From Yuukianura sp. NJ FZ-2021 (taxonomy: Eukaryota): a stretch of 64,000 nt of DNA. Each line of letters starts with the position of its first letter. Position 1 is the stretch's first letter. Positions 895 through 20,800 of this stretch are shown piece after piece. The stretch is from positions 5,022,001-5,086,000 of the forward strand of contig CM102283.1 in assembly GCA_046563655.1 (NCBI GenBank), written 5' to 3'. The notes under the pieces were generated by a model. That model saw nothing but the letters and a program-made list of their open reading frames with translations, was not told the origin of the DNA and did not search any database. The position numbers were made by a program, and so were the translations under genes.

Positions 895-1660
895 ATTTAG
901 CATTGAGCTCCTTCCTAAACCATATATTCTCTACATTGCTCGGTAAGCACAAAGCTATCACAACTTCAGGGGGCGGCAAAAATGCCTTAGCGACCAAAAC
1001 CGATTCTTTATTTGTTTACAATTTCACTCACAGTGACGTCACTCCGAGTGAAAATACAGGTTCATCCGAGTTTTTAAGCTATTTTTAAGTTTGCGGCGAA
1101 AGTATTGAGACTAAAATGCTGAAAATTTTGAACAACACTGTAAATGAGTGAACTCGGAGTCAAAGAAATCCCATAGCAACTCAGTTTTGAAAAAACAATT
1201 TTCAACGACCGTACCTATAAGTATTCTATTTACCTTGTCACAACTTGAGATCTTCAGCTGTACTTTATGGAAATAGTACTTAAAGTATGTGTTGTGGATG
1301 TTAGATGTAGATGTTATATATACAAATAGAAATGAAGCTTCGTCACCGCAAATCGTAACGCGTACTACATAGTTTATATATCATCAAGTCATCTTACCGG
1401 TTTTTATATTGCCGGAACTTCCATTGTATGGAGCCAAAAGAAACTCCCGCAATGAGGGTATTAGGCACTTTGCCGTGAGTGGATGAGACAGGGGATAAGG
1501 AGACAGGGACAACTTTTCATCCCCAACTTTTTAAGAATTATCCACGACAGATTGCCGAGGAGTTTTTCGTTAAGGGGATAATTCCAGGGATAACACATCA
1601 CTTAGCTAGAAGCGCGAATTTGATTTGAAATTTGGATCAATTATGTTTCAAGAAAGAAGG

Positions 1661-2043
1661 TGTAGCGTCTCGCACCGCTACTCTCCAGAATATGGCCGCA
1701 GCCACGCCCTCTCAGACTCCGAATAAACTCTGAGTCAGCAGACTCATCAACTCCCGAAAGGCCAGAAACTCACCGAAAACAACAGAACCACATCAGTGGT
1801 TAAATATATAAAATATATTTAATAAACTGATGAATAATCGGTGTGACAATCTCAATCACTAATCATAACTACCTCTGATCTCCTCACTCTCAAAACCACA
1901 AAACCAGACTGATCTAACTCTATACAAAAAGCCTATCCTCGCTCGCTCCTCGCCTCTCTTCAAATCTACCGCGAGCCACATCATCATCTCAACCTGCCCC
2001 TAACCTAACGCTCCACTAACTATATGGACGAGCAGGCGTCTCA
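1661..2043 (-). repeat. 3' LTR of element 1
   Basis: Direct repeat of 4965-5347, preceded on the minus strand by a polypurine tract. Confidence 0.95.
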
Positions 2044-2395
2044 CGTTCCCCCTTCCGATGGATGGCGTGCCAGTCGAACCACGGCCGACATCCAACTGCA
2101 AAACTCCTAGGCGACTGCTCCTCCAGAATCTCGGCAGCTCCGTCACCCTCATCATCATCGTCACCGTCATCATCATCATGGACATCAGCGGAGTCTTCAT
2201 CATGTAATCGTCAACCGCAGCATCGGATTCCTCCCTGATGATCCAACACTTCACACTTTTCACTTTCACTAATTGTTTCAAAATAAGTTCTTGTGGCAAC
2301 CAATCATAACCACTTGATATCAGCCACATTTTGAACATGATTGGAGCCCATAAATGGACTCCATTGCCACTGCATTTCCACAAACTTTCGACTCC

Positions 2396-3376
2396 TCATT
2401 TCATCACTTTCCGGGACAGTGAGACCCTCAACCGTCGCAATTGTAGATAATGAACGTCACTTTGAATTACACACATGACTCCAATTAATTTCACATTTCT
2501 GCACTGCGACCAACGCTGAGTAGCACCTTCCATCACTTTACGGGACAGTGAGACCCTGAACAACTCAGAACTTGGCGCAGAATTAACTTCACAAAGCCAC
2601 AAAATATTATTAAATACTTTCTCAAAATCACAATCACACTTCCACACACTTTTTAAATCTTCATTTTTTGAATTTTGAGGGAATAAGACCCTTTTAACAC
2701 AGAATAGCACCGCAGCACTAACAACTTCACATTTTGAAGCTAGAGGAACGCCGCACTTCAGCATCGTGGCCGGGCTAACGTCCTCTGGAGCGATGTCGGA
2801 AGATTGAGCCCTCGTTCCCGCACATCTCTCTTTTTGAAGGAGCCCGCAGTCTCCTCCATTTCCATTTGTCATAAAATTTTTCACAACACTATGCACTCCA
2901 GATTTAACTTTCTTGATCCTCGGAATTTTGAAGCACAGTACCGCCACTGCAGTTAGCCGATAACTGTCTTCGGGAGAGTCCTGGTCGCAACCATAATCTT
3001 CATCTGACGTCACTGGAGTCCACGAAAACGCGTCCGCTCCCATGTACTGCCAGCCAATCAGAGTCACTCCCCATCTCTTAATTTCCGGATACATCAATTT
3101 CCGTTTCATCATCACTACCACCACATTCCACCAACACAATATGTACAATGGATTGGAGCCGCTAAAGCGCGACTCCTGATGCTCTAACACAAATTTGAAC
3201 TGTACAGACACTTGCACCTCTTTAATAATGAGTGCTTCACAGCACTCAACATGAAAAACAGACACAAAATTTAACTTATAACTTGAAGCACTGACAAGTT
3301 TACTATGTTCGTCCAAAAATTGAGTTATGATTTGGGAAATGATGGACGAAACATCATTCCCCACCTTTAGTTTAAA
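2396..3376 (-). CDS. ORF2, non-Pol, predicted -1 frameshift fusion to Gag; unknown function
   Basis: Open frame overlapping the gag end in the -1 frame (FKLKVGNDVSSII...). Homologous ORFs occur in elements 2 and 3. No D(S/T)G, YxDD or HHCC/DDE motifs are visible. The same frame resumes after a TGA (2000..2383) and runs through the PPT. Confidence 0.65.
   Translation of the reverse strand, partial: FKLKVGNDVSSIISQIITQFLDEHSKLVSASSYKLNFVSVFHVECCEALIIKEVQVSVQFKFVLEHQESRFSGSNPLYILCWWNVVVVMMKRKLMYPEIKRWGVTLIGWQYMGADAFSWTPVTSDEDYGCDQDSPEDSYRLTAVAVLCFKIPRIKKVKSGVHSVVKNFMTNGNGGDCGLLQKERCAGTRAQSSDIAPEDVSPATMLKCGVPLASKCEVVSAAVLFCVKRVLFPQNSKNEDLKSVWKCDCDFEKVFNNILWLCEVNSAPSSELFRVSLSRKVMEGATQRWSQCRNVKLIGVMCVIQSDVHYLQLRRLRVSLSRKVMK
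3308..3376 (-). promoter_or_regulatory. -1 programmed ribosomal frameshift signal: slippery UUUAAAC + pseudoknot (element 1)
   Basis: TAT TTA AAC TAA; 7-nt spacer; stem GGGGAATGATG/CATCATTTCCC; loop TTCGTC pairs with downstream GACGAA. Confidence 0.85.
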
Positions 3377-4638
3377 TATTCTGGATCGTCGTCTTCCTCT
3401 CCATATTCGCCATAGTCCTCCACGACTTCCTCTGAAACGTCCAACTGAAAAGATCCAAGGACGAAATTCACTGGCGTTGGACACTGAAACTGCTTGTGAC
3501 CACGCCCACTACATCTCCAGCAATAAATTTCATCCATATTTCGCCACTGATCACTTCCGGAGCCATTACCATGACTCCTGTTTTCATCTGGAGGCACATC
3601 CACTTCACTCTGACCTCCACTAGCACTAATTTCCTCATCATCTCCATGGCCTTCATCATCAAATGTCACTTCATCTGCAATTTCAGAATGATTGGAGCCA
3701 ATATCATTGACTCCTCCCCCACTGTGCACTTGTTCATCGTCACTTTCCACATTTTCACAATCAATTTCTTCTCGTTCACTACCACTTTTTGCATTTTCAC
3801 AATCACTTTTTTCTTCCTCACCATCACTTTCACTATTTACAACTGAATTTACCTTCACAATTGGAGGTAACTGATTTTTCAATTTGTACAGATCATCCTC
3901 TGCACATAAATTGGCATGAGCAACTCTGCATGCTACAAATAATTCATCAACTGTAGAATAACTTGTTGTTCCTAAGGCTGTACGAAGCCTAGGATATAGA
4001 GCCAGCCTTGCCCGTAGCACGGAATCAGCCTCTGACTGATTAGGATGCACTAACTTGGCACTGCGAACCATTTCATAAATAAATTGTTCCACTGGTTCGT
4101 GCAGTTTCTGTACTCTGGTGTGCAGTAGTCTGGTCCTTTCGGCAACATCAATCCAGTTGTCGTAACGATTAATAAACTGCACCTTAAATTCACTCCACTG
4201 CGTCACTGTACCAAGCACATGATCCAACCACGGTTGTGATTCACTTGGTAAAACTGTTTTAATTAAGTAAAGAAACTGCCCTGTCGAATGACCTTGTGCA
4301 GTAAAATACCGTTCCACTTCCACTAAAAATCCAGCAGCACTCATTTTCTTCATATCAAACTTTGGAACGGGTAATTTTGAATTCAGAGATGTGAAGTTCA
4401 CATTTTGCAGGGCCGTAATCAGCGCCCTCGTTTGGTCACATTGTGTGATTGGAGCCCCCGCAGCGACTCCGACGGAACTTGATGCCACTATTTTTTCCTC
4501 CACGCCTCGCAAGGCTTTAGCTACCGCAGCAGCTACAATTTTATCAACTTCTTCTTTGGTGTATGTAGTCATGGCCGGATCACTCACTTTTGCCGGCACT
4601 GCACTACTTGGAGTGGGAGATGCACTGGGGGTAGACAT
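3367..4638 (-). CDS. gag: Gag protein (423 aa): capsid-like domain, acidic linker, CCHC zinc knuckle
   Basis: Retrotransposon gag-like segment WSEFKVQFINRY...RVQKLHEPVEQFIYEM; CX2CX4HX4C knuckle CWRCSGRGHKQFQC; lies between the LTRs, after the PBS. Confidence 0.9.
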   Translation of the reverse strand: MSTPSASPTPSSAVPAKVSDPAMTTYTKEEVDKIVAAAVAKALRGVEEKIVASSSVGVAAGAPITQCDQTRALITALQNVNFTSLNSKLPVPKFDMKKMSAAGFLVEVERYFTAQGHSTGQFLYLIKTVLPSESQPWLDHVLGTVTQWSEFKVQFINRYDNWIDVAERTRLLHTRVQKLHEPVEQFIYEMVRSAKLVHPNQSEADSVLRARLALYPRLRTALGTTSYSTVDELFVACRVAHANLCAEDDLYKLKNQLPPIVKVNSVVNSESDGEEEKSDCENAKSGSEREEIDCENVESDDEQVHSGGGVNDIGSNHSEIADEVTFDDEGHGDDEEISASGGQSEVDVPPDENRSHGNGSGSDQWRNMDEIYCWRCSGRGHKQFQCPTPVNFVLGSFQLDVSEEVVEDYGEYGEEDDDPEYLN

Positions 4639-4951
4639 TTACCCCGCAAAAAATTTTCCTCCGCGTCGGCAACTAGATCCTCTTCTAGTACCGAAACTGA
4701 CGCTAAATGAACAATTTTTACATCAGCACGTCACTCTTTATCTTCATCTTGGTCATTCGTGACCTTTGACACTGATTGGAGCCCACGAATGGACTCCTAA
4801 ATGACTATGAAAGCCGTCGCAACGACTCTGAACACTTTCACTATGAACAACCGCAGTTGATTATGCAAATTTCACAATTTTTTCCAGATTTTCGGTTCAA
4901 ATCACATTTGACCTTGGATGACCTCCCTGACCTTTGGTAGTTGAGACACGA

Positions 4952-4961
4952 ACGGTCGCCA
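4952..4961 (-). other. Primer-binding site, probably tRNA-Arg
   Basis: TGGCGACCGT is complementary to the ...ACGGTCGCCA 3' end of insect tRNA-Arg(TCG), as used by 412/mdg1-type elements. The same 10-mer occurs at 15238-15247 and 18193-18202. Confidence 0.8.
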
Positions 4962-4964
4962 CTG

Positions 4965-5347
4965 TGTAGCGTCTCGCACCGCTACTCTCCAGAATATGGC
5001 CGCAGCCACGCCCTCTCAGACTCCGAATAAACTCTGAGTCAGCAGACTCATCAACTCCCGAAAGGCCAGAAACTCACCGAAAACAACAGAACCACATCAG
5101 TGGTTAAATATATAAAATATATTTAATAAACTGATGAATAATCGGTGTGACAATCTCAATCACTAATCATAACTACCTCTGATCTCCTCACTCTCAAAAC
5201 CACAAAACCAGACTGATCTAACTCTATACAAAAAGCCTATCCTCGCTCGCTCCTCGCCTCTCTTCAAATCTACCGCGAGCCACATCATCATCTCAACCTG
5301 CCCCTAACCTAACACTCCACTAACTATATGGACGAGCAGGCGTCTCA
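4965..5347 (-). repeat. 5' LTR of element 1
   Basis: Direct repeat of 1661-2043, followed on the minus strand by the PBS. Confidence 0.95.
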
Positions 5348-6579
5348 AAGGGAAAAAGCAAAATCATTTGTGATTTACTTTTTTATTTGTTTGGTTGTTT
5401 ATTTATTTATTGGTTTAGTATATGTTTTATTTTTATACAACAATTTCTTGTATCAAAACATAAGGAATTACCTAATCGACTAAAAGTCGGGAGAAGTTAA
5501 CAATGAGTAAAATGAGAGGTAATTCTAACCCCAATACATTTCATTTCAATTTTACTAACTTAAATAACTAAATTTTAACTGTTACCGCTAAATCTTTTCC
5601 GTTTAGCGTCCCGCCTCCGGAGGCTTTGTATGGCAGGGGTAATTTCAACGCTTGACTACTGGCTATTTAAGCTTAGAATTCTGATTTACATGAAACATAA
5701 GAAGCGAGTGGAAACGTTGGTTCAGCCTTGGATGGACGCACTGACACTACTGTTGTTCTCTGAGGTACTTTAATCCTGAGGTTTAAAACTTACTTATGTA
5801 ATTAAGCTAGATTCTGGTTTTAGAAATGTTTGGTTCCTGGCTCTTGGTACCGAAACACGGTAGGAGTAAGTGGTACTTCATTTTGGCTTCCTTCTGCCAC
5901 TTCATCTTCAAAAACTGCGACTGGCTGTATATTTTCAGCTTCCTCATACCCGACAAGAACTTCGAGTAGTGATTTCGCTTCCGTTTCTACTTCTTCTTTG
6001 CCAGTTCTGAAATAAAGAAAAGCCCAGTGGGCTTGTTTGAAGTTAAATATAAGTTCGATTTGATTTAACCTGATTGGCAGGTATAAGCTTATTTAAATCT
6101 CAGCTGATCACTTTTGTACTTAGGATTTTGAGCAGGAATTTTTAGTCAAACGAATAGCCAAACTTTGGGTTCATGGTGTCGTTGATTATAGACCGTGACA
6201 CTTGATGCTGATGACCGCTCGCTTCTTAGTTTCCTGAAATGTAACAGTGTGTAACGTTCTCCGCGCTACGAAACACTGAAATGGCCGCAGCAACGCCCTC
6301 TCAGACTCCAATCTGAATCCGCAGACTCATGCAGCAGCGACGACGAATGACTCCCTGAAACTCCGACAACAAGATCAGCGAAGATAAATATAAAACATAT
6401 AATTATTGAGCTGATCAATAAAGAATATATACAGAATAAACTGCTCGTGGCAGCACGGACATAACACTAATATGCTCTCAGAGCAAGAACCAAATCCAGA
6501 CTGAGCTCAAAGCTCCACTAACACTAAAACTAACTATCCTCGCGGTCACTCAAATCTCCCTCCTCTAACTCTCCGCGTC

Positions 6580-7035
6580 TCACTCTAACCTAAACTCTAC
6601 GTGGCGGGAACCGGGGCACTTCACCTTCCCCTCTCGAAGGAACGGCACGGTGGGGATAACCTCGTCTGACGTTCCAGAACTGCTGAGTGAGCCCGGTTGC
6701 CTCCGAACTCCTCTTCTCCGCTCGCCATTTCCAGCGTCATCGTCATCGTCATCATCATCAGCGGAGTCTTCATCATTGCTCCAGTCATCATCAGCGGAGT
6801 CTTCATCATTGCTCCCGTCATCAGAATCAGAGTAATCCTCGTGGAACCCGTCATCGTCGTCGGAGTCTTCATCTCTGGATTTTGGCCAACTTTTTGACCA
6901 AATCGAAGCCAACGCATTGGCTCCCTTCGACTTACAAAAGTTCATGGCTCCACATTCCTTCACTTTACGGGACAGTGAGACCCACCAGCCAGAACTTTGT
7001 ACTTCATCTGAAACGCTCATAGCGATTCCTTCCAC
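6580..7035 (-). other. Acidic (Asp-rich) 3' coding segment of element 2, running through the PPT into the LTR
   Basis: VSLSRKV motif shared with element 1 ORF2; DEDSADDD repeats homologous to 2140-2200 of element 1. Confidence 0.5.
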
Positions 7036-7551
7036 CTGTTCGGGAATTTGCTTCCTGTTTGGCAGAGACAGGAATAGGTTACTAACTTTAGTGTAACTTT
7101 AACTTAGAATTATTTTGGAAGAGATGAGACTGAAAGTGAAAGGGTTAGATTTACTTTTAGTGCTATTTACATTTACTTTGATCCACTTGTGTGGAGTGAG
7201 AAAGGGTTAAGCGTGAATCTGGTTCTGCATGCAATTTACTACTGTAAGGACTTGCGCAGTGAGATAGTACAGTAAGTGTAATTTCCAAGTAACCGCTCTC
7301 TTCACATTGCTATAGTGTAAGTCGCCGCTCTTTGGTGTATCTTTACTAATAGTATAAGCAAGGAGGAGTGCTCCTCTACCATATTCATTCATACAACAGT
7401 CTTCGTTTCATCTTCCTACTGTAAGGTCTCTTCTAATGAGTCATCGAGTAGCCATCTTAGGTTTTCTTCTATTTCATCTTTTACCAATTACTAATTAGTC
7501 AAAATAGACACTAAATCAAATCCACTTGACGCTGGAGCGATCATTGATTAT

Positions 7552-8373
7552 TTAGAACCACAGAACATTAAGCATTCTACATTTTACCAGCATAACGTTT
7601 TGTTTTTTCTCATGAATTTCGCTCCTAGCTATTCCTACTAGCACAGCGATGACTTCTTCTTTCTTCATTAGCTCGCCTTGTGGAGCTCGAGTAACACTGT
7701 GAGCTAGTACTCGACTGAGACCTTCCCAGTGCTCTCTATTTTCATATTTCTTCTGCTCTTTTCCTAGAGCTTGAGTAACAATGCGAGCTAGTACTCGTAT
7801 GAGACCTTCCCAGTGTTCTCGGTTTTCTTCTTTTTTCTGCTCTTCTTCTAGAGCTAGAGTAACGCTGCGAGCTAGTACTCTTCTGAGACCTTCCCAGCGC
7901 TCTCTGGAGGGACGTCGGAAGATTGAGGCCTCGTTTCCGTACGTCTCTCCGAATGTGGATCCCGCAGTCTCCATCATTCTTCGTAAAGCCAACTTCATGA
8001 CTTTCTGCATTAGGATACCAACTTCATGGCCATCCTCTTCGTTTTTCTTCTTCTGGATCCTCGGAGTGGTGAACGACAGTACTGCCAGTCGACTTGACAT
8101 GTTACCGCCTTCATGGGAGTTTTGAACAAAATCACAATCTTCATATTCTGGCACTGGACTCCATGAAAGCGCGCAAGCTTCCGCAGAAATCCAGACATCT
8201 TGATGTCTAACTCCCCCTAACTGAATCTGCGGATCCTCCACCTTCACTCCACTTGAGTTGCTACAACGCAACTTCCTACCACTACTACGTCCAAAATGAA
8301 CCGCTTCGTCCCTTTTTAATTTTTGATTAGGGTGAATGATGGACGAACTGTCATTCCCCTGCTTCAGTTTAAA
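7552..8373 (-). CDS. ORF2 of element 2 (non-Pol), with ~28-aa tandem repeats
   Basis: -1 frame begins FKLKQGNDSSSII. Shares WSPV...AVLSFTTPRIQKK with element 1 WTPV...AVLCFKIPRIKK. Contains repeats ENREHWEGLxRVLARxVT. Confidence 0.55.
   Translation of the reverse strand, partial: FKLKQGNDSSSIIHPNQKLKRDEAVHFGRSSGRKLRCSNSSGVKVEDPQIQLGGVRHQDVWISAEACALSWSPVPEYEDCDFVQNSHEGGNMSSRLAVLSFTTPRIQKKKNEEDGHEVGILMQKVMKLALRRMMETAGSTFGETYGNEASIFRRPSRERWEGLRRVLARSVTLALEEEQKKEENREHWEGLIRVLARIVTQALGKEQKKYENREHWEGLSRVLAHSVTRAPQGELMKKEEVIAVLVGIARSEIHEKKQNVMLVKCRMLNVLWF
8305..8373 (-). promoter_or_regulatory. -1 frameshift signal (element 2)
   Basis: TAT TTA AAC TGA; 7-nt spacer; stem GGGGAATGA/TCATTC(A)CCC; loop TTCGTCC pairs with downstream GGACGAA. 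Confidence 0.8.
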
Positions 8374-9663
8374 TAATTTGAAGCATGTCCAGCACCTCCA
8401 TATTCTCCGTACACTTCCCCGTAATCGTCTTCTTCTGGAGCTTCCTCGGAAACTCTCCTTTGAAAAGATCCAAGTGCCCAATCCACTGGCGTAGGAAACT
8501 GATACTGTTTATGGCCACGCACATCACACCTGTAGCAGTAGACGCCATCTGCGTCTCTATCCCTGCCCGAGCCCTCTGCTCGAGTCATAACCTTAACTCC
8601 CCTTGCCACGTGGAGGCATCCCAATGTCACCTCGCCCTCCACTGTCTTCAATTTCCACTTCTTCGTCTTGACCTTCACTGCAGAAGGTCACTTCTTCTGC
8701 ATTTTCAAAATCATTGGAGTCAATTTCCTTGACTCCCTGTTCATTTCCCTCCTTTTCAACTGATACTGCTTCCTTTTCAGTATCACTGTCTTTTTTGTCC
8801 TCCTCAGTTACCTTCACAATCGGAGTTAATTGCTTTTTAATTTTATACATTTCATCCTCCGCACAAAAATTTGCATGTGCCACTCTGCATGCAACGAATA
8901 ATGACTCAACAGTTGCGTAACTGTTGGTTCCCAATGCTGTACGTAGCCTTGGGTGTAGAGCAAGTCTTGCTCTTTGCACTGAGTCAGCCTATGACTCACT
9001 AGGATAAATTAACCTTGAACAACGCACCATATCATAAATAAAATGTTCAACTGACTCGTGGAGTTGTTGGACTCTCGTATGAAGAACACGTGTACGCTCA
9101 GCAACGTCTATCCAATTGTCGTATCTTCTTGTGAACTCAACCTTGAATTCATTCCATTCTCCCACTGTGAGTAATGTATGGTCCAACCATGGATGCGTCT
9201 CTGCATGGCCTTGTGCTGAAAAATATCTTTCTACCTCCACGAGGTAGCCTGCTGCTGACAGTTTCTTCATGTCGAACATAGGAGGTGGTAGTTTGGATGA
9301 GAGGGACGTGATTCTCAATGCATTGATCAATTCCTGAGTCTGGTCCACCCCTCCTTCTAGAGACACCGCAGCGACTCCCTCTTGACTTTTTGGAACTAAC
9401 CTCTGTTCCATGCCGCTCACGGCTTTAGCTACCGCAGTAGCTACTAATCGATCAATACCCCCTTTTGTGTATGCCGTCATGGCACTAGCACTGGCAATTG
9501 CTTGTGCTGATGTAACTGATGGAGGAGAGACACTGAATGCGTGTCTACTTCTTAAATTATGACCCTCAATGTCCGGAGAAAGACCCTCTGTCGGTAATTG
9601 AAAATTTACCGTTGGGTCAATTTGTAACTTTTGTAACTCACTTGGGAGTTTCTTTTCACTCAT
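8364..9663 (-). pseudogene. gag: Disrupted gag of element 2
   Basis: Three pieces (8989..9663, 8593..8979, 8364..8678) align to element 1 Gag. Lesions: in-frame TAG after PSES, a frameshift, a short internal deletion, and a knuckle (CYRCDVRGHKQYQF) lacking its last Cys. Confidence 0.85.
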
Positions 9664-9911
9664 TTATGACCTTATGAACTTGAGTGAGCCAATTAGGGAG
9701 CTGTATGGAACAGCTCCGATGTGAAAAGAAATAAATGATGATTGATTATTTATTGACTTTCGGTGATACACCCTGATCAACAAGTTTGCTATTTTTTAAA
9801 GGCACTTTTTGATTTCTTATGTATTTTTCTTTGTGTCATATGATTACTTTCGTTTATCCTTTTGATTACCTAACGATCTATTCTACTTTCGCTACTTATA
9901 CTTAACTATTC

Positions 9912-12900
9912 TTAACTATACTTAATTGTAATTTGACAAAATGTTGCACATGAATATGTGGAGCGCTTTGTAAGTTTCAAGAAGGTGGGGAGAAGATGCA
10001 ATATTTTCCAGTTGTTTTTCAAAGTTCGTGGCGGGGTGTAATGTATCAAGATGTTTGGCGAACGTTTTTCTGGGTTCGTTTTGTTGCGGGCAGATAACCA
10101 TCGCGTGACGTAAGGAGAGTGTTTCACCACAGTATTTGCAGGGTAGATCGACAAAATCCCCCAGGTTGACCCAGGTCCTTCGATTTAAGACGTTGTTGCG
10201 TTGTAGACGGATTTGGGCGATTCGCGTAATGGCGTAGCTGGGAAAGTTGGCCTTGAAGTAGAATTTTTCAGTGAAGTCCGAGCCAAGAAGGGACTAGTAG
10301 TTTGTCATTGTGTAGGATCGTTCCACTGACGCCATGTCGGCTTTGCCTAGTTTCTCCCTGAGTTGATACAAAAAATTGTTATAAGATCTTATTGCTAAAT
10401 TATAATTATTTGCTTGCCAAATACTGCTCAGTCCTAGCGACTTGAAGATCTCACTCATCTGGGCACACCAGTTCCATTCGTTTGTTGAAATGGGGGACGC
10501 TGTCGCCTTAATCAACTCATGGTACGCTTCTTTTATTAGGGATCCTTCTTGCGCCCGAAGTATTCTTGTCCAGAACAAGTACCCTAACTTAGCCACCGTA
10601 AGTGAGACGTGATGAATTCCTGTTTCGAGTCTAACGAAGTATTTTGGCGTGTTACGTGGAAGGCCAATTAGTTTCTTTAAGAACCTCTGTTGTGTGGACT
10701 CTAATTGTTCGGCGTGGGTCAGCCCCCATATTCCTGCGGCGTACAGTGTGTTCGGTAGTAGTATGGAAGAGAGAAGCGACTTGGATGAGCTCAGGGAGAA
10801 GATTCTAGGAAACTTTAGAACTGCAATGACGGAGGCTCCTGCCGAGTGTCCTTTTGTCACTGCTAGTCCAGCATGCGTCTGGAATTTCCCGTTCGAAGTG
10901 AAAGTAATTCCCAAGTATGTGTATTGTTTCACTATTTTTAGTGCCGTCCTTCTCCAAGTGAACTTGTCAGTCTTGCAAGAGCGACCTGATTTACTGAATA
11001 TTACTACTTGCGTTTTGGATAAGTTGACTTCTAGTGCGCGAGATTGGAAAAAGTTGGATGCCAGAGTAATCTTTTCTTGGAGTGCACGCGCAGAAGGGGC
11101 TATGATGGCGAGGTCATCTGCGTAGAGCAAGTGGTGTATAGTTGTGTTTGAGAGGTTGACACCGGCGATGAACGTTCGTTCGTATATTTTAGAGAGCCCT
11201 TCCATGAAAATATTGAAAAGTGCCGGACTAGCTGACTCGCCTTGTAGTACTCCCCTCGCTATGTTGATTTTTTCGGTCTGCCCATCGTCCGTGAGGATAC
11301 GAGCGGCGGCTTGGTCGTATAGACTTTTAAATACCTTGATAAATTTGTTTGGTACTTTCTCGTTTACCAGGCACCTCCATAGTAAGCCGTGGTTTGGGCT
11401 GTCGAATGCTTGTCTCAAGTCGACGAAGCATACGTAGAGTGTTTTGTTCTTTTTGAATTGCTTCTGAATTAGGGAGTTTAGTACGAAGATGTGGTCGAGG
11501 GTGCTCTTGCCACGTTGAAACCCTGCTTGGAATTTCGAGAGCTTGTTGTTTTTTTTAATCCATGAATTAAATCTGGACACCAGGATCGTCGTGAAAAGTT
11601 TTAGCAGTGTACTGAGTAGGGAGATAGGGCGGTAGTTGCTGGGATCGTCGTGGCATCCTTTCTTGTGAACTGGAATCACGTTGGATTGTGACCATGCGTG
11701 CGGGACGATTCCTGAGTTGTACACGTTTTGGAACAGATTTAGAATTCTTCTAGGGCCGGACCTGACAAAAGCTTCCAGATTTCATTAGGGATGAGATCTG
11801 GACCTGGGGCCTTAGCGTTTTTGAGTCTTTTCAAGGCTAGTTTGAGTTCAAACATGTTGAAGTCCGGATCTAGGATTGGGTCTTTCCCATGTGGGTTGTC
11901 GTATTCGAGGTTGGGTGAAGAAGATTGTTTTTGACACGTGGGATTGTACACCTTCCCGAAGTGGTTTTGCATTCTGTTTGTGTGATACTGGAGTTTGGTT
12001 TTCTTCGGTGCTGGCGGAGTGACTTGACGGCGTTCCAAAACTCTGTCGGTCTGTGAGAGTTGTGCAGGGATTTCTCTTTTACACTGCGTGCTACTTCGGC
12101 TTTCGATTTGCAGAGAGATTTGTATTCGGAATTTATATTGATGTAGTTTTCCAAAGCTTCGCCTTTTTTTCTGCTTTTGTATGGTTCAATTCTTCGGTAG
12201 TGTCTGAGCTGCTTGAGGACTTTGTGCTTCATGCTTTTGCACTCCGCGTCGAACCATTGTGCGAGTGATATGTTTGTGGTTTGCTTTCTGGAGCACTTCA
12301 GTAGCCCAAGGGATTTACAGGTAGTCTTTACGCTGTTGTCGATCGCAGTGGAGAATTGGTTAACGTCGTCCGTGGGTACTATTTTACATATTGCTGAGTT
12401 TAATTGTTTTTTGAGACTGAACAATTGGCTGGGATTTGATGGTGTGATAATTCTTCCGGTCAGATTTCTCTGTAGAGTTTGTTGTCTGGAGATGTTGAGT
12501 TCGGCTATGATCGGGAAGTGAGACGAGTGTGGGAAGTCTAATACTCTGAAGGAGCTGATGAACATAGATGCTGGTAGCGTGTATAGCAGGAGATCGATGA
12601 CGCTGCTGCCGCATTTGTTGCCTGTACGGCTTGTATAGGTTATTTCTCCGTCTAGATCTCCCGCTAATGCCTCATTTCCAATTTGAAAACCGCACTCTTC
12701 CGCTGCTTTGAGCAGTTGTTTTCCTTTGGCGTTTATTCGTGCGTCTTTGCTACACCGTGCTGTCCCTAACTCTGTGTTTAGTTCACCAGTCCATGCGTTG
12801 GCGTCCCCCATTAAAATGATTTTGTCATAGTGTGCCCGATGATGAGTGATCTCTTCAAATAGCGATGTTAACTTTATATGTTTATTGGGGGGAGCAGTCA

Positions 12901-13800
12901 CCTATAATTAGGTGACTGACTCACGCTGAGCATACGCTTATGGTATATTTCAGACCTACCCCTTTAGAAACAGCGTTACTTTTTGTCCTTTATGAGCAAA
13001 TACACATTATGGTAATCTGAATGCTATCACCTTACGGAGGTCGTCCGTATTCCGATAAGCAAATCAGATTGAATGAGTATTTTTGCTTAATGGACTGCTT
13101 CAAGGAGTAGTGATCGGCAACCACCACAAATCCGCGAAGCTCTTACCCGCTGACATTGAAGACCACAGACACCTCTGACTCAAGGTCAGCTCCTTCTGTG
13201 GTCTCAGCAGGCAGTGCTTGCAGATGCGGCACCCCCCAATATACTCCTTTATATAGGGGTGTCCACACAGCAGCCGCTGGAAAGATAGAAGTCCAGCACT
13301 TGCCTCCCTGCTTCGGGACAGGGAGGACCCACGGCCTCGACTTCTTTTTTCTTTCCCGCTGACTGGGTGCGAACCCAGGTCGGCCCGTGGAAAAGCATTG
13401 AAAGCTTAACCACTGAGCCAACTCGCCCCATGTTAACTTAACCGAGTGTGTACTGTCTGGAGATAAATAAAAAAATACTAGTCAGAACGTGATAGTTTGT
13501 GTTGTTAGCCTAACTAAAATATAATATTCCGTATGATTAATTTCTGATACACCTATACCATGCAGTGTTTTTTCCCATCCAAGTACAAGTCCACCTGATG
13601 GTCTTCCACGTTTTGGTCGGTAGCCGGGAACCACTACCAAATTGTAGTTTTCAGCTAGTATTCTGTGGTAAGGAGATTGGCTAGAAGACATAGTCTCCGA
13701 CAGGCAAAAGATTACTGGTTTAATATTTATCAAATTAGTGTAAAAATCGAGACTTTTGTTAACTAAACCTGATACATTGTAGTAAAATAGTGAAACTGGG
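9912..13800 (-). pseudogene. LINE ORF2 (AP endonuclease - reverse transcriptase - C-terminal CCHC), broken by stops, frameshifts and a SINE
   Basis: APE motifs YNVSG, CLSET, GRPSGG, MGDANA, SVIDLL, SSHFP. RT motifs KAPGPD, YRPISLL, FVDLRQAFDS, GVLQGESASPALF, YADDL. C-terminal CKYC...H...CP near 10085-10140. Confidence 0.9.
12875..13429 (-). mobile_element. tRNA-derived SINE (555 bp) inserted in LINE ORF2
   Basis: 10-bp TSD ATGTTAACTT at 12865-12874 and 13430-13439. 5' head GGGGCGAGTTGGCTCAGTGG (A box) ... GGTTCGCACCC (B box). 3' AATAAAC tail. Removing it restores the APE reading ...SVKLT|SLFEE. Confidence 0.9.
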
Positions 13801-13925
13801 ACTGCGTAGCGTAAATGTGGGGAAATTGATTGTCATTGTGATCTATCTGGAGGTATCGGATTTATGTGACGTCCAGAGTTCTCTTCTCGCCTTTTTTAGC
13901 TTCATCTCGAAGTATTTTTGACCTG

Positions 13926-14675
13926 TCACTGTAGACGGCGATAGTGGGGTGTCTGAACTGTCTGGCGGAGGCAAAAACAGTGTCCCCTCTGAGCGAAGTC
14001 CTTGAAGAGTACCGATGTGGGTCTGGGCCTACCGGCGTCTGGGTTAGTTCTCCCCAATTTACGAATTTGTAATGGAGTTATTGATTTCTGGTTCAGTGTA
14101 ACTTGAATGTAATGCAGAACCTGGGCTTCGATAGTGTCTTGAGGACCTTCAGCGATACCTTGGAAAATGAGATTATTCTTCCTGGCTTCCGCAACGGCGT
14201 GAGCTGCGGTAATTTGGAGAGATCCTGTTGCGCTTTGGAGATTTGAGACGTCATTTTTAAGTGCAGAGAGTCGGTCTTCGTTCGTACTGACTCGGGAGTT
14301 CAAGGTATAATTGTCGTGTTGTAGTGCTTCAACGAGAGACGTGAGGTTATGTACATTTGCTTTGACTGACGAAATTTCCGCTTGCACGCTCGCAACAAGT
14401 TCCTTTTGATTGTTTAGAATTTCGGACGTATGGGCCTTCATCTGTGCCTCCATTTGTGTGTTGAGCTTCGTGACGATTAGTTCGACAAATTTTTCGTCGT
14501 ATACTGGCGCGATACGTTGTGATTTGTGCGGAGTGAGTGCGTCAGTGTCTACTAGCGGTCTTTTTCCGCTGCCATCGGGACGTTTCGGGGTTCCCTCGAA
14601 ATTCAATATCGATTGTCGCAATGTGCCTTGTGTGGGCGTTCCAATTTCTTTTCCTGGAGACCTTTCTACCGGCAT
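13926..14675 (-). CDS. LINE ORF1 (coiled coil + RRM-like); 3' end probably frameshifted
   Basis: Heptad-rich segment followed by RKNNLIFQGIAE...RKLGR...RPRP, typical of LINE ORF1. Confidence 0.75.
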   Translation of the reverse strand: MPVERSPGKEIGTPTQGTLRQSILNFEGTPKRPDGSGKRPLVDTDALTPHKSQRIAPVYDEKFVELIVTKLNTQMEAQMKAHTSEILNNQKELVASVQAEISSVKANVHNLTSLVEALQHDNYTLNSRVSTNEDRLSALKNDVSNLQSATGSLQITAAHAVAEARKNNLIFQGIAEGPQDTIEAQVLHYIQVTLNQKSITPLQIRKLGRTNPDAGRPRPTSVLFKDFAQRGHCFCLRQTVQTPHYRRLQ

Positions 14676-16212
14676 TTGTTGGCACTGGCAATGACAAGTG
14701 TTTGCTGAAAATGTAGAGATTTAGTAGTAATCGTTTCCAATCTCTGATTTTAGGATTTTTGTAACTTAACTTTGTTGGTTCTCGAATTGCTTGGACTGGG
14801 ATATAGATATAGGCATGCAATAGCAATACCATATATCCCAAATGTGAGTTAGGTTAATCGGTGAATTCGTCCAGTTTCCGTTGATATGGCACAGATTTGT
14901 GTTGTACGTTCCTCACTGTGAGGTGGTGGAGTAACGTCGGTTGTGATAGATTGTTGTTGATCGCGATTAATTAAGTTAAAGTTTAATTGTACAGGAGCAT
15001 AAGTTCTCTCCTCCCTCCCTCCTTCAGTACTGTCAAATTACTGTAATTGAAGATTAATAGAAACCTACAAAGGGCTGCTCTTACGCAAGGGAGGACACTA
15101 CAGACCTCCCAGGAACCTTACAAGCACTCGAAAAGAAATAAAGAAAGTTACCACGGCAACTTTGTAATTTCACAATTTTTTATGTCACTTGACCCGTGAC
15201 CTCTTCACTCGAACGTCGTCACTGTAAGCACTCACAAACGGTCGCCATCTGTAACGCCCTCCGCGCTACGGAACACTGAAATGGCCGCAGCCACGCCCTC
15301 TCAGACTCCAATCTGAATCCGCAGACTCATGCAGCAGCGACGACGAATGACTCCCTGAAACTCCGACAACAAGATCAGCGAAGATAAATATAAAACATAT
15401 AATTATTGAGCTGATCAATAAAGAATATATACAGAATAAACTGCTCGTGGCAGCACGCACATAACACTAATATGCTCTCAGAGCAAGAACCAAATCCAGA
15501 CTGAGCTCAAAGCTCCACTAACACTAAAACTAACTATCCTCGCGGTCACTCAAATCTCCCTCCTCTAACTCTCCGCGTCTCACTCTAACCTAAACCCTAC
15601 GTGGCGGGAACCGGGGCACTTCAAGTGAAAACGTTAGTTACTGCCAATTACTATCAACCATTGAAGAATTACGCACATTTTAGGTGATACCTACCTTGTC
15701 CATGCTTGGTGACTCCAATGGATCCGTGTGTGTTCAGAGATGATAGTTAAGATTCAAGTACTTAATGATAGTTAAAATAAAGATGTTATATGTTAAAAAC
15801 AATTAAAATTGTTCAAAACAATGTGATCTGTAAAAGATATTTCCAGTAGAATTTTAGCGAGTTTTGATTTTGAAAAACCTGAGACTGTTTTGTAGGGAAA
15901 ATTAAAAGTTAGTTTTATCCCTGTGTCTGGCCAGAGACAAAAACCCAACTTTTATCCCCGCGACAAGAAATTTTGGAGAGGAGACAAGAAATTGGGGGGG
16001 GGGGGAGTCGGGATAACTTTCTGTTTCTTGTCTCCTTATCCCCTGTCTCATCCACTCCCGGCAAAGTGTCTATTATAAACCTAACCACATATGGATCTTC
16101 TCCCATGTGTGGCGATAGCTTCTTAGATATGGTTTGAAAGGCTCGTTTTTGAACACTCAAATCTATTCATTATAAATTCAAAAATACCATATCTTGTAAG
16201 AATATTCCCTTG

Positions 16213-17271
16213 CTAATGAGTAAAGACACCATTTTTGCTACCAATATTTTCTGAACACTTCAACCAAACTACAGCCAATAATTTCACATCATCACATTTG
16301 CACGAACTTTTGACTTTTCCAATTTTTAAATTTTGAGGGAATGAGACCCTGAACAACACAATGCATATAGCACAAGAAACGCTGCGAGCCAGCAATGCCA
16401 GGACAACGATCTTCAATTCAATTTTAAATTCACTTCCAATTTCTTCTTTCTCATCACTTAGTACCGCAGCACTATAACTCTCACTTTTCAAAACTTGAGT
16501 AACGTTGCACTTCAGCACTGCCGGGCTAACGTTCTCCATAATTTTAACTTTCACAATCGACACTTTCCCTAAAAACTCGCTTTTCGAAACTTGAGTAACG
16601 CCGCACTTCAGCACTGCCGGGCGAACGTTCTCCTTAATTTTAACACTCAGAACTAACACTTTTTGTAAAAGCCCACTTTTTGGAGCTTGAGCAACGCTGC
16701 GAGCCTCGCCGATTGTGGCTGGGACAACGTTCTCTGTCTTGGTAACTTTCATACCGAAGACTTTCTGTAGAAGCTCTCTTTTTGGAGCTTGACTCACGCT
16801 GCGAGCCTTGTCACTTGCGACCGGGACAACGTACTCTGGAGCGACGTCGGAAGATTGAGGCCTCGTTCCCAAACATCTCTCCTTAATGAGGACTACTTTC
16901 AACCCCTCATTCTGCGTCAGTATGCCACCCCCCTGGTCATACTCTTCTTCTTTGTTAACACTTCTCACTACACACTCCACTTCTCTTCTCACTTCCTGGA
17001 TCCACACTATATACAAATGATGCCAGTTGCTAAAACGCAACTCATTAGGCACTAACACTAACACTATAACTAACTTCAACTGTACAAAAATTTTTACAAG
17101 AATGAGTGACACACAGCACTCAATGACTACTTCAACCAAAACTTTTGACACAAAACTGGAAACACTCTTCACTTTTCCAAAACTGTTCAAAAACTGAAGA
17201 ATTTCGTCCGCACTTAACTGTACACTATGGAGAATGATGGACGAACTGTCATTCCCCTCTCTTAGTTTAAA
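16213..17271 (-). CDS. ORF2 of element 3 (non-Pol), with ~30-aa repeats
   Basis: -1 frame FKLREGNDSSSIILH... is continuous with ORF 16213..17190. KERCLGTRPQSSDVAPE matches element 1 KERCAGTRAQSSDIAPE. Confidence 0.6.
   Translation of the reverse strand, partial: FKLREGNDSSSIILHSVQLSADEILQFLNSFGKVKSVSSFVSKVLVEVVIECCVSLILVKIFVQLKLVIVLVLVPNELRFSNWHHLYIVWIQEVRREVECVVRSVNKEEEYDQGGGILTQNEGLKVVLIKERCLGTRPQSSDVAPEYVVPVASDKARSVSQAPKRELLQKVFGMKVTKTENVVPATIGEARSVAQAPKSGLLQKVLVLSVKIKENVRPAVLKCGVTQVSKSEFLGKVSIVKVKIMENVSPAVLKCNVTQVLKSESYSAAVLSDEKEEIGSEFKIELKIVVLALLARSVSCAICIVLFRVSFPQNLKIGKVKSSCKCDDVKLLAVVWLKCSENIGSKNGVFTH
17203..17271 (-). promoter_or_regulatory. -1 frameshift signal (element 3)
   Basis: AAT TTA AAC TAA; 7-nt spacer; stem GGGGAATGA/TCATTCTCC; loop TTCGTCC pairs with downstream GGACGAA. 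Confidence 0.82.
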
Positions 17272-17849
17272 TTCTCTTGAACATTGTCATCTTCGGCACA
17301 ATCACTTTCCTCTCCATACCCCTCTAAAACACTTCCAAAATAACTTCCAAGAAAACCTCCACTTCCAAAAATTTTCGTCGAGCGGAAGCCAACGCTGTTG
17401 ACTCCCATCAGTTTTGAATAATTGCCATAATTTTTGTTGATTTCATGTGCCACCATAATGTCACTATTCACTTTTCTTGAATTAGAATTTTTTGATGGCA
17501 CTTGGTCACATTTGACACATTTCTTGTTCACTTGTTCACATTTGTCACGTTTCTTGTTTACTTCAACTTTTGAATCACTGAACTTTTTCACATTACTGAT
17601 AGACACTACTGCCAACTTCTTACTAGTGGCAGACTTTGGAACTTTCGACTTGGTTGGTGCCGAAGTGAGTTGCACGCTTTGCAGGGCCGAAACCAGCTCC
17701 TCTGTCGAAGGTGCACATTCACTTTCACTAGAAGCCACCGCAGCGACTCCATCTCTCACTTCTTGAACTACATCCTGCATGCTCTCCATGACTTTGTGCA
17801 ATACCACATGCACAATTTTTTCTACGTTACCTTTCATGTATACTGCCAT
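17262..17849 (-). CDS. Internally deleted Gag-derived ORF (195 aa) of element 3
   Basis: N-terminus aligns with element 1 Gag (GVAA...ELVSALQSVQLTS...VPK). The capsid core and CCHC are missing. Ends ENLN* on the slippery site. Confidence 0.65.
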   Translation of the reverse strand: MAVYMKGNVEKIVHVVLHKVMESMQDVVQEVRDGVAAVASSESECAPSTEELVSALQSVQLTSAPTKSKVPKSATSKKLAVVSISNVKKFSDSKVEVNKKRDKCEQVNKKCVKCDQVPSKNSNSRKVNSDIMVAHEINKNYGNYSKLMGVNSVGFRSTKIFGSGGFLGSYFGSVLEGYGEESDCAEDDNVQENLN

Positions 17850-20800
17850 GCTTGTCCTTGCTTCCTCTATTCACTGACGCACTACAATGAATGACATGTT
17901 CTACCGCAGCAGAAACTAGATCCGTCTTCGGTACCAAAATGGTACTAATTAATCACTTTTTTATCTCGGAACTTCACAGATTACACTGATTCTTGGTCAT
18001 TCGTGACCTTTGACATGAGCGGAAGCCACTGTTAGTGACTCCCATTTGACACTAAACGATAGCCGCTGAGAGCGACTCTATGAATGTGAATCACATGAAC
18101 AAACACTTTTTTGAGCCACAATTTGTACAATGTTTTACTCACTTTATCCTCTTGACCTTTGGTGACCTCTGAATCACTGGATCTGCACACGAACGGTCGC
18201 CATGTGTAACGCCCTACGACGCTAAACAACTGAAAAACACAACTGGAGCAAACACTGCCGCTCCGCACCAGACTACTCTCTGAGTCCGCAGACTCACAGA
18301 CCCAAATGACCCCAAACAATCACCACTGCTCACAACTACATCGGCGAATAAATATATAAAATATATTTATTCGTCCTAACCTAACCTAACCAATGCAATA
18401 CGTCTGCAAGTATGTTCTATATGTATATTTTAAGTAACAGTGAAAACCTAGGTTAAATCATGCATGTTTTATAATTTTGAATTGTTCGGAGAAAGAACCG
18501 AGTTTAATATTTTATCGTTTAGGCATTCCTCAAAGATTGTGGGATTGGAACAGTTTTCGAAATTGTCTGTGTGTCGATTATTAAAGGAAGATGCATTGCA
18601 AGTTTTCGACAAAGTTCAACTATTTGAAATAGTCATGAGGTTAGAGAATTTGTAATTTTTAGTGAAAATGTTTCTGGATCTGTAAATCTAGGTAAAATTC
18701 AAATGGAAGCTACCTAACAAAAATGTATATTTTAAAGCTGGGCCCATTCGTAGGTAAATCGACAACGGGCATTATCGACACCAAAAAATTTGAGATCTGC
18801 TTAGGAAAAAGTTATCTCATTGATTCGATTTCCGCAAATGACACAAGCGGAGTTCACCATAAAAGTGATCGCTTCCCAAGTTCTTTCAACTGATGGAGTT
18901 GTCGCAGCATCACCTTACTTCAACGTTCCTAAAGATCTAAGGTCGACTCATAAATATTTTTAAATTTCATTTTTTAATTTAATTTAAAACTCATCGGCTA
19001 TTTTTAAATTTTATTCTTTTTAAGATAAATTTAATATAAATTTTATTCACAAATTTTAACCTTCAAACATTTTTATCCGTAGTTCTGACAGATCTTTTCT
19101 ACCACGCGGACTGCTCAACGCAGAAGAACGTTTAAACTCTTGGAGCAGTACAATGGGAAGGAGCGCAAAGTTTCAAAGAAACACGCGACAATATTCACTC
19201 ATGAACTAGTACTTCCGAAAACAACTGCTGTCACTGATTGTTCTTGCGCCCTAAGGTAATAAGTAATTTTGTTATACGCTATTCAGTATTGCTTGATATA
19301 AACCTTTTTTTAGCATTTTGTCTCGGAAATATGCATTGGATAAGTTGGTAACTCCGCATAAAATCCAGTTTCCGAAATTGAAGTTCATCCGGGAGAAACC
19401 AATATTCGAATTTCCCTTAACAAGTTTTTTCTTAACAAGTTATGCCGTATTTCATGTTTCCAAAAACTGATTTTTTTTTATTTTTTGTCTGCAAAATTCA
19501 CCTCACTCTATGAAAAGTTAATGGGATTCGTGCAAAGTTCATACAAAAGTTGTAAGTAAGCGTCCCAAGTTTTGGCCAATTTTAAACATCCGTGCATTGA
19601 CAATTTACAATCTATATTTTTTACTCGATAGGAAATGATCAAAGCCTAGCACAAAAATGAAATTTTTTTTGGCTTTCTTATTTATATAATGAACTTTTTT
19701 TTATTGTTTCTGGTGTCGCTTCATTGACCACAAGATATATTTAAACATATTTAGCGTTTTCACAAAACAAAGACCGCATAAAACCTTCAAAAATAAAGAT
19801 ATGCCAATTCTAAAGCAAACTGAAATACGCTTTATTAAATCTGAAAAAAAACCGCTTCAAGTAAATTTTTTTTTGGCATTTTGACATCCAAGCACGACCT
19901 ATCACATGCGATACATGCTAGACCTTGATAATCGGTTCAATGGCATAATCTATACAGCAAAAGCCACGCTCAATAACAGCTGAAGAAATAAGAGCACCCA
20001 AGTAAAAACCGCCTTTTTTGGAAAACCGCCACTCCAAAAATACTCCGAAAATGTTTTACACTTCGTGTTTAATTTCAAATCTTCCTGCGATGTTCCATTT
20101 CCTTTCATTTCTACCGCTCTTGTGCTCCTCTGTGCACAATGGAATGTTGACTATGAAGAGTTATTTGCAGGAATCTGCTTTCTGATAATCGCCGTCGAAG
20201 TTAGTTGTGCAACCAAAAATAATGCTAAAGATAAAGCTTTGCATGAAATAACCCAATTTAATACTAATACATCTAGACCATTCTAACAGAATTTTATAAA
20301 AAGTTACTTGTTGCCATGTTGCGTATGGCTGTGCTACCTATTCGCTCTTCAAATTGTGGAAAGTTGCGCGTAACTGCAATTTGTCCTTCAAATCCGCTCT
20401 AATTTCTGCATTACTTGAACTTTTAGAAATTTAGAATTTGCAAAACTTTTCAAAGAATCAGTTCCATTTCTGCAAAGAAAGTATAGTTAACAAACATAGT
20501 GCAATATTTGTACTTGGTAAATCAGTTTATGTCATTCCAGCAATAGTGTTGCACATTAAATTATTCTTTGTATACAATTTGTCTTGACAGCCAAAAATAT
20601 TCGAACCAAAAATATGCGTGAAAAATATTAGACGGGTAAGTTTTGAGTGCTTGATTGCTACATAAAAGTAATTTGAATTCATGGAAAGAAAAATCTCAAA
20701 TAATCATAGTTTTATTGAATTATTGTGTTACTCATTACGTAATTTGTTAACTAGTCTTGAAAGATCTTCGCCATTTAGTTATTTCATTAAAACACAAGAA

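Follow-up and report, generated by a model that had tools for sequence, protein, structure and literature searches.

In a 64,000-nucleotide (nt) stretch of Yuukianura sp. NJ FZ-2021 (assembly GCA_046563655.1, contig CM102283.1, positions 5,022,001 to 5,086,000; hereafter the window, within which all coordinates are counted), three related long terminal repeat (LTR) elements, E1, E2 and E3, carry at the end of gag a cassette with the predicted layout of a canonical programmed −1 ribosomal frameshifting (−1 PRF) site, followed by a long −1 frame (ORF2) that contains no stop codon and whose amino-acid sequence evolves as if neutral. The reading that we favour, and to which we give rather more than an even chance, is that these elements represent a high-copy, non-autonomous, gag-only Ty3/gypsy family with an inherited recoding signal, in which the −1 frame is decayed pol kept open. 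What is unusual, and in our opinion modestly novel, is that three things occur together: the elements no longer have pol, their recoding signal is perfectly preserved, and behind it a long −1 frame drifts like non-coding DNA yet remains stop-free. The analysis covers the 64,000-nt window, and the copies read are E1, E2 and E3, plus one distant relative (contig L001).

From the alignment of the three copies, it is clear that the cassette has the same anatomy in each element. The whole cassette is on the minus strand, at the positions assigned to its parts by an earlier sequence-only reading of this DNA, which had correctly placed the three heptamers, the gag end, the 7-nt spacer, the stem and the pairing between the loop and GGACGAA. 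The heptamer TTTAAAC is found at 3370-3376 (E1), 8367-8373 (E2) and 17265-17271 (E3), and in all three elements it is read as U-UUA-AAC in the gag register, with gag ending as EYLN-stop in E1, NYLN-stop in E2 and ENLN-stop in E3. The 0-frame stop codon (TAA, TGA and TAA, respectively) is immediately 3′ of the heptamer. After the 7-nt spacer come stem 1 (S1) of 9 base pairs (bp), a loop (L1) of 3 nt, stem 2 (S2) of 7 bp, a single junction A and a linker (L3) of 19 nt. In the E1 cassette (3308-3376), the spacer occupies 3363-3369, S1 is formed by GGGGAAUGA at 3354-3362 with UCAUUUCCC at 3334-3342, L1 lies at 3351-3353, S2 is formed by UUCGUCC at 3344-3350 with GGACGAA at 3308-3314, the junction A is at 3343 and L3 spans 3315-3333, both pairings being read from the sequence. 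The E2 (8305-8373) and E3 (17203-17271) cassettes keep the register of E1, that of E2 with one bulged A in S1. Thus GGGGAATGA, located 7 nt past the heptamer, pairs with TCATT(T/C)(C/A/T)CC through G-U wobbles in E1 and E3 and with the bulged A in E2, and the loop TTCGTCC is complementary to GGACGAA located 19 nt beyond the stem. The predicted structures have energies of −9.2 to −15.8 kcal/mol for the S1 hairpin and −9.1 kcal/mol for the 7-bp S2. Three usual marks of a −1 PRF site are found, namely an X-XXY-YYZ heptamer in register, a predicted structure that could stimulate slippage from a distance of 5-9 nt, and a −1 frame that overlaps gag without its own start, and the canonical architecture proposed in the sequence-only reading fits in register, spacer and predicted pseudoknot.

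Conservation within the cassette closely follows the predicted pairing. In the three-copy alignment, standard pairs occupy 47 of the 48 pair cells, versus 40-63% when the partners are slid by 1-3 columns; 14 of the 16 pairs do not vary, and the other 2 of 16 show a one-sided change from G-C to G-U. With zero two-sided compensatory changes among the three copies, the support available within the window is one of conservation and not of covariation. An ungapped three-way alignment shows a conserved island made of the heptamer, both S1 strands and both S2 strands (bar the two one-sided pairs), and L1 (UGU or CAG), the spacer, the linker and the flanks are variable. That the linker differs while the paired segments are kept, as had been claimed, is evident from the invariant columns, 3/19 in the linker versus 7/7 in GGACGAA. 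The pattern TTTAAAC-N7-GGGGAATGA has exactly three occurrences in the 64 kb; when up to three mismatches are allowed there are four matches, a number reached by 0 of 100 shuffles. When the downstream 45 nt were shuffled 2000 times, 4, 29 and 34 of the shuffles equalled the loop-to-downstream duplexes (−11.3 to −11.9 kcal/mol). Plain minimum free energy folding of 87-nt pieces was unexceptional (z −0.7 to −1.7), in line with the inability of this method to score pseudoknots. Rfam returned five sub-threshold matches at E ≤ 1 in 1600-18600, in the GAT-rich tract described below and elsewhere, none of them at the cassettes and none a frameshift family. The observation is confirmed as real and non-random, and these data support the assignment of the cassette to a predicted −1 PRF layout conserved as an island at the RNA level.

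The origin of the signal becomes apparent from L001, a 7677-nt metagenome contig that bears P0006, the best homologue of the window gag (31% identity). The L001 gag ends as DHLN-stop on T-TTA-AAC, then TAA, and its −1 frame is a 1219-residue Ty3/gypsy Pol with protease (PR), reverse transcriptase (RT), RNase H (RH), integrase (IN) zinc-binding and integrase core domains. Downstream of the L001 heptamer there is a 13-bp interrupted stem, whose loop ACCCC can pair with GGGGU 16 nt past the stem; this cassette and those of the window were compared by architecture only, as MAFFT gave no stem register, and they share it with S2 letters that differ. Gag closes with an L and an N that do not vary in 5/5 aligned gags. 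The shared heptamer, position and architecture, together with these two invariant residues, indicate that the cassette is a Ty3/gypsy Gag-Pol frameshift site that was kept after the loss of pol. The metagenome scan gave two loci, L001 and L002, of which L002 offers no junction since its partial gag ends before the gag terminus, and the 46 pattern matches in viral contigs included no gag relative. In animal LTR elements such an arrangement is common: according to a review, pol lies in the −1 frame in 28 of 51 elements surveyed, with heptamers common (PMC5009743). L001, an autonomous relative, also carries a third ORF after pol (6061-7566, plus strand; 501 residues) with a DNA_pol_A_exo1 3′-5′ exonuclease domain (E 4e-26), an unusual accessory gene for an LTR retrotransposon.

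Homology among the three elements extends over LTR, gag and ORF2, with about 60-75% of the nucleotides identical, and all three elements are on the minus strand. E1 (1661-5347) is a structurally complete non-autonomous LTR element, with LTRs at 1661-2043 and 4965-5347 (384 nt, 99.7% identical, TG...CA ends), target-site duplications (TSD) CCTT at 1657-1660 and 5348-5351, a sequence resembling a primer-binding site (PBS), TGGCGACCG, that begins at 4961, and a purine tract at 2046-2056, the last two read directly. Its gag (3367-4638; 423 codons plus stop) starts with M, ends with EYLN-stop and encodes a bilobed capsid domain and a CX2CX4HX4C knuckle. This gag is a genuine one: it has homologues in P0006 (E 6e-50) and P0007, the latter bearing PF03732; its AlphaFold2 model has a helical core at residues ~90-255 (predicted local distance difference test score, pLDDT, 76-91); Foldseek matches that core best to the capsid domain of Arc (E 2.8e-5, target TM 0.69), with dArc1 and the HIV capsid also found; and it is under constraint, as described below. 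The Pfam match to zf-CCHC was sub-threshold only. E2 (6250-15623) has LTRs at 6250-6623 and 15250-15623 (374 nt, 98.4% identical) and the TSD CACT at 6246-6249 and 15624-15627, and its frame map reveals a gag that is interrupted twice, by an in-frame stop and by a change of frame. A non-LTR retrotransposon with APE (endonuclease) and RT domains (10294-12901, minus strand) is nested in E2 between the 5′ LTR and gag. E3 (16213-18371) has a partial 5′ LTR at ~18120-18371, no 3′ LTR was found, and its ORF1 (17262-17870; 202 codons) is without the capsid and knuckle parts of gag. In agreement with the sequence-only reading, Pfam detected no PR, RT, RH or IN domain in the three ORF2s at E ≤ 1. The elements of the window are therefore derivatives and not autonomous members of Ty3/gypsy, and since gag is present and pol absent, they must rely on a helper to move. 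Among the sequencing runs listed as containing the element, five were DNA runs from two studies and none was an RNA run. The contigs of four of the DNA runs (two organisms) gave 83-295 pieces of this family per run at ≥80% likeness, meaning that the family is high-copy.

The −1 frame is open far beyond the cassette in each element. ORF2 of E1 (2396-3508) has 370 codons from stop to stop, 324 of them past the slip site; that of E2 (7552-8508) has 318, with 271 past the slip site, and that of E3 (16213-17286) has 357, with 350 past it, all on the minus strand. Tandem repeats occur within ORF2 at 7657-7905 in E2 (three 84-nt units) and at 16480-16838 in E3 (96-102-nt units), all unit lengths being multiples of three. 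Past the slip site the ORF2 frame has no stop in the three elements, versus 18-33 in each other frame; none of 20000 shuffles of ORF2 was stop-free, and when neutral drift was simulated to 0.25 substitutions per site, only 1-3 sequences in 5000 stayed open. Neither chance nor neutral drift can explain the 271-350 stop-free codons, and the signal is more than a dead relic. The first ATG of ORF2 is 87-172 codons past the slip site, with none from the upstream stop until there, so that ORF2 can be entered only by frameshifting. A longer ancestral ORF2, suggested by an open stretch at 2000-2395 past the E1 stop and by the E2 tail at 6580-7098, was also considered and rejected: the tract in question is GAT-rich, poly-M in E1 and poly-D in E2, and its openness is uninformative because its base composition alone leaves two of the three frames with hardly any stops. 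This GAT-rich tract lies 5′ of the 3′ LTR, at 2100-2330 and 6740-6830, encodes poly-Met (E1) or poly-Asp (E2) in the ORF2 frame, and gives spurious C/D-box snoRNA matches.

One conceivable though rather unlikely explanation of this openness is that the −1 frame is kept open for translatability alone. Ribosome transit through ~1 kb past the gag stop might shield the RNA from nonsense-mediated decay (NMD), or any sequence might serve as a bulky Gag tail. In the NMD variant, the 3′ untranslated region would be very long if no ribosome crossed it, and frameshifted ribosomes would clear it of decay factors. According to a review, NMD can be inhibited by readthrough or frameshifting of low efficiency (PMC7566565). 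If this were true, it would represent selection on the openness of an ORF without selection on the protein, and a cis role of the Gag-Pol frameshift apart from Pol.

One alternative is that ORF2 is a new functional domain that replaces Pol, with the frameshift metering a Gag-ORF2 fusion into particles as it does Gag-Pol; this was the novel capsid-tethered protein of the sequence-only reading. Besides being open in all three elements and reachable by frameshift only, ORF2 can be aligned between E1 and E3 over 355 residues with 28% identity. In the contigs of the four runs, the 12 indels listed among 31 also all preserve the frame, four being multiples of three and the rest four +1/−1 pairs within a few bases. 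Its substitution pattern points the other way. By the Nei-Gojobori method, applied to BLAST-alignable blocks only, the ratio of non-synonymous to synonymous substitution rates (dN/dS) for ORF2 is 0.88, 1.25 and 0.81 over 84, 135 and 29 codons, versus 0.26 over 303 codons for gag. Differences between elements fall at the three codon positions as 73/62/144 in gag (of 313 each), and as 27/26/21 (of ~76) and 31/28/29 (of ~98) in ORF2, that is, with no excess at third positions. Among the best-supported 40 of 556 variants seen in other copies, those in ORF2 are distributed as 12/12/8 by codon position (7 synonymous, 25 non-synonymous and no stops) and those in gag as 2/1/6 (6 synonymous and 3 non-synonymous). 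Moreover, a 64-nt block with 48-56 of 64 positions identical has one reading phase in E1 and E3 and another in E2. The flat codon-position pattern, the dN/dS close to 1 and the variant spectrum together mean that the amino-acid sequence of ORF2 is without detectable constraint.

Homology and structure searches gave no sign of a domain either. Pfam produced only sub-threshold chance matches of ORF2 to repeats, HMMER found 0 matches at E ≤ 0.001 among 1.84 billion representatives, and a language-model atlas gave no usable match (recognition 946). The AlphaFold prediction based on the three ORF2s had a pLDDT of 29. With the one detectable similarity of ORF2 being to a segment of Pol (see below), we regard a functional ORF2 protein as improbable, and the proposal of a novel capsid-tethered protein finds no support here.

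We hold equally doubtful the proposal that the cassette no longer recodes, and is instead either a cis-acting RNA element used by helper proteins in packaging or dimerisation, or a young relic, with the open −1 frame as a by-product. Nucleotide-level conservation that includes third positions is what such an element should show; the cassette is present in E3 in the absence of a capsid-coding gag; and retroviral pol regions can hold cis-acting RNA signals. Other short stretches inside or after ORF2, at 2770-2833, 7889-7952 and 16821-16884, and at 2524-2573 and 6951-6997, have 75-88% nucleotide conservation whatever the frame, and in the runs the word depth peaks there as well (bins 2471-2620 and 2771-2845), a high depth that would also suit an RNA element. 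These blocks may be signals that act in cis at the RNA or DNA level, or a module common to other repeats. However, a role confined to the RNA leaves unexplained why, in all three copies and L001, the heptamer is in register with gag, the spacer is exactly 7 nt long and the stop is adjacent, and why the −1 frames are stop-free for 271-350 codons.

The only similarity of ORF2 to a known protein is the Pol segment mentioned above. In E1, the remnant (2855-3100, minus strand, in the ORF2 frame) corresponds to the C-terminus of RNase H and the RH-IN linker, with a decayed ADALSR-type motif: ORF2 residues 142-198 align with residues 632-689 of the L001 Pol, covering the RW...ADALSR end of RNase H and the linker (BLASTP E 5e-4). 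When the L001 Pol was searched against the whole window by tblastn, this remnant was the top match, and E2 gave a weak match to the same Pol segment. With hhalign against a profile of 18 Pols, only the RH C-terminal segment was recovered, in E1 with E 5e-4 and a probability of 32% and in E2 (a weak remnant at ~8038-8184) with E 0.009 and a probability of 5%, and no Pol similarity was found in the E3 ORF2. Since this sole similarity is to Pol and lies in the pol frame, ORF2 is probably at least partly decayed pol; the sequence-only reading had named a decayed pol as the outcome that would overturn it, and one segment in E1 and E2, with none in E3, points partly that way. We have also considered a protease remnant just 3′ of the cassette (LDE/LNS versus LDTGS in L001), which is not claimed here because its offset from the slip site differs by ~15 residues and hhalign does not report it; the conserved D-E just past the cassette is encoded by the S2 strand GGACGAA. 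That E1, E2 and E3 are separate recent deletions from different intact autonomous elements, with ORF2 open as recently functional pieces of pol, would account for an RH remnant in the ORF2 frame but is very improbable, as Pfam finds no PR, RT, RH or IN at E ≤ 1 and the Pol profile matches one short segment only, ORF2-specific blocks and tandem-repeat units are common to the elements and absent from Pol, and the third-position excess expected of diverging functional pols is missing.

Returning to the reading of a gag-only family with an inherited signal, we envisage the following course of events. E1, E2 and E3 would derive from Ty3/gypsy (Metaviridae) elements by the loss of pol, with the Gag-Pol recoding signal inherited from the autonomous ancestor. 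ORF2 would be what was left of pol after internal deletion and decay, with only the RNase H C-terminal motif still faintly visible. Judging from the sequence, −1 frameshifting is probably still active: some ribosomes, a minority, would be held up at the pseudoknot, move back by one base and go on in the old pol frame, giving a product that would consist of Gag and a tail of 270-350 residues of unconstrained sequence. The copies that propagate would be those with a translatable −1 frame, whatever its spelling, and we infer that selection preserves the translatability of this frame and not its sequence.

Several observations weigh against this reading. On the side of neutrality, the dN/dS blocks are short (29-135 codons) and some compare tandem-repeat paralogues; the dS of ORF2 is low, at 0.22-0.43 versus 1.04 in gag, which suggests a nucleotide-level constraint that could mask constraint on the protein; the variants (40 of 556) and indels (12 of 31) offer a partial view of the other copies; and an AlphaFold2 prediction made with three sequences leaves room for a disordered but functional ORF2 tail, a rapidly evolving functional tail being conceivable as well. 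On the side of openness, the tandem repeats inflate the count of 'independent' stop-free codons in E2 and E3. As for descent from a Gag-Pol site, the Pol remnant is weak (the probabilities of 32% and 5% given above) and absent in E3, and the S2 of L001 has only 5 bp and is matched by 59 of 2000 shuffles (3%). The lack of two-sided changes in the cassette belongs here too. Finally, the cassette was kept in E3 though ORF1 has lost the capsid, so that the ratio of Gag to fusion cannot be the selected trait in that element. On balance, the interpretation given in the sequence-only reading is partly supported.

The cassette shares with the Gag-Pol −1 PRF sites of animal Ty3/gypsy elements and retroviruses the X-XXY-YYZ heptamer at the gag end, the 5-9-nt spacer, the stem or pseudoknot and the overlapping −1 frame. 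It differs from them in that the −1 frame here encodes no enzyme and is neutral in sequence yet open. Gag-only non-autonomous LTR retrotransposons of the TR-GAG type have been described in plants, and LARD and TRIM elements are more reduced. The present elements are like the TR-GAG type in having intact LTRs, PBS, polypurine tract and TSD, with gag present and pol absent; in contrast, the host here is an animal, and a recoding signal and a long open −1 frame are retained. A limited literature search found no published description of gag-only elements that keep both.

The term 'coronavirus-type' used in the sequence-only reading is apt for the heptamer and the general H-type layout, as the coronavirus frameshift elements (infectious bronchitis virus and SARS-CoV types) have an identical U-UUA-AAC and likewise form an H-type pseudoknot in which S1 and L3 are long. 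It does not extend to kinship: there is no similarity in sequence or model, Rfam gives no match at the cassette at E ≤ 1, and the window structure is two-stemmed with a 7-bp S2 and a single junction A. Since the lineage is that of a retrotransposon, the resemblance to coronaviruses is convergent or generic.

A parallel in host genomes is PEG10, a domesticated Ty3/gypsy gag-pol gene that keeps its −1 PRF, is single-copy, has no LTRs and retains a conserved protease in ORF2. Genes of this type resemble the present elements in that ORF1 derives from Gag, the −1 PRF has been kept and ORF2 is a truncated derivative of pol, whereas the elements described here occur in many copies, lie between LTRs and TSDs, and have an unconserved ORF2. 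ZCCHC5 is mentioned among the domesticated Ty3/gypsy gag-pol genes in the review cited above (PMC5009743).

Because Gag-Pol frameshifting in retroelements is textbook knowledge, and non-autonomous LTR elements with gag alone have been described before, the cassette on its own is an ordinary, well-preserved example. If the combination proves true across many genomic copies, it would split two roles of frameshifting, the dosing of an enzyme and the need of the translated RNA itself, and would provide a natural system for testing ribosome transit as a means of retroelement RNA protection. A note of caution for annotation follows as well: even where a good frameshift signal leads into it, a long open frame does not have to encode a functional protein.

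Elsewhere in the window, a 1214-residue open frame at 56778-60422 (minus strand), with a reverse transcriptase domain and, oddly, an RFX DNA-binding domain, represents another retroelement, flanked by diverged repeats at 56399-56684/61501-61787 and 60625-61326/61791-62496. An uninterrupted frame of 1679 residues at 21385-26424 (plus strand) has sub-threshold matches to NACHT and ankyrin; it looks like an intronless NLR-like gene and adjoins the transposon cluster. Dense short tandem and inverted repeats with ~88-100% identity make the region 36927-38520 satellite-like. Two adjacent open frames at 49555-50578 (minus strand) match the anillin homology domain, which favours an animal or at least an opisthokont as host, and are probably two exons of a host gene.

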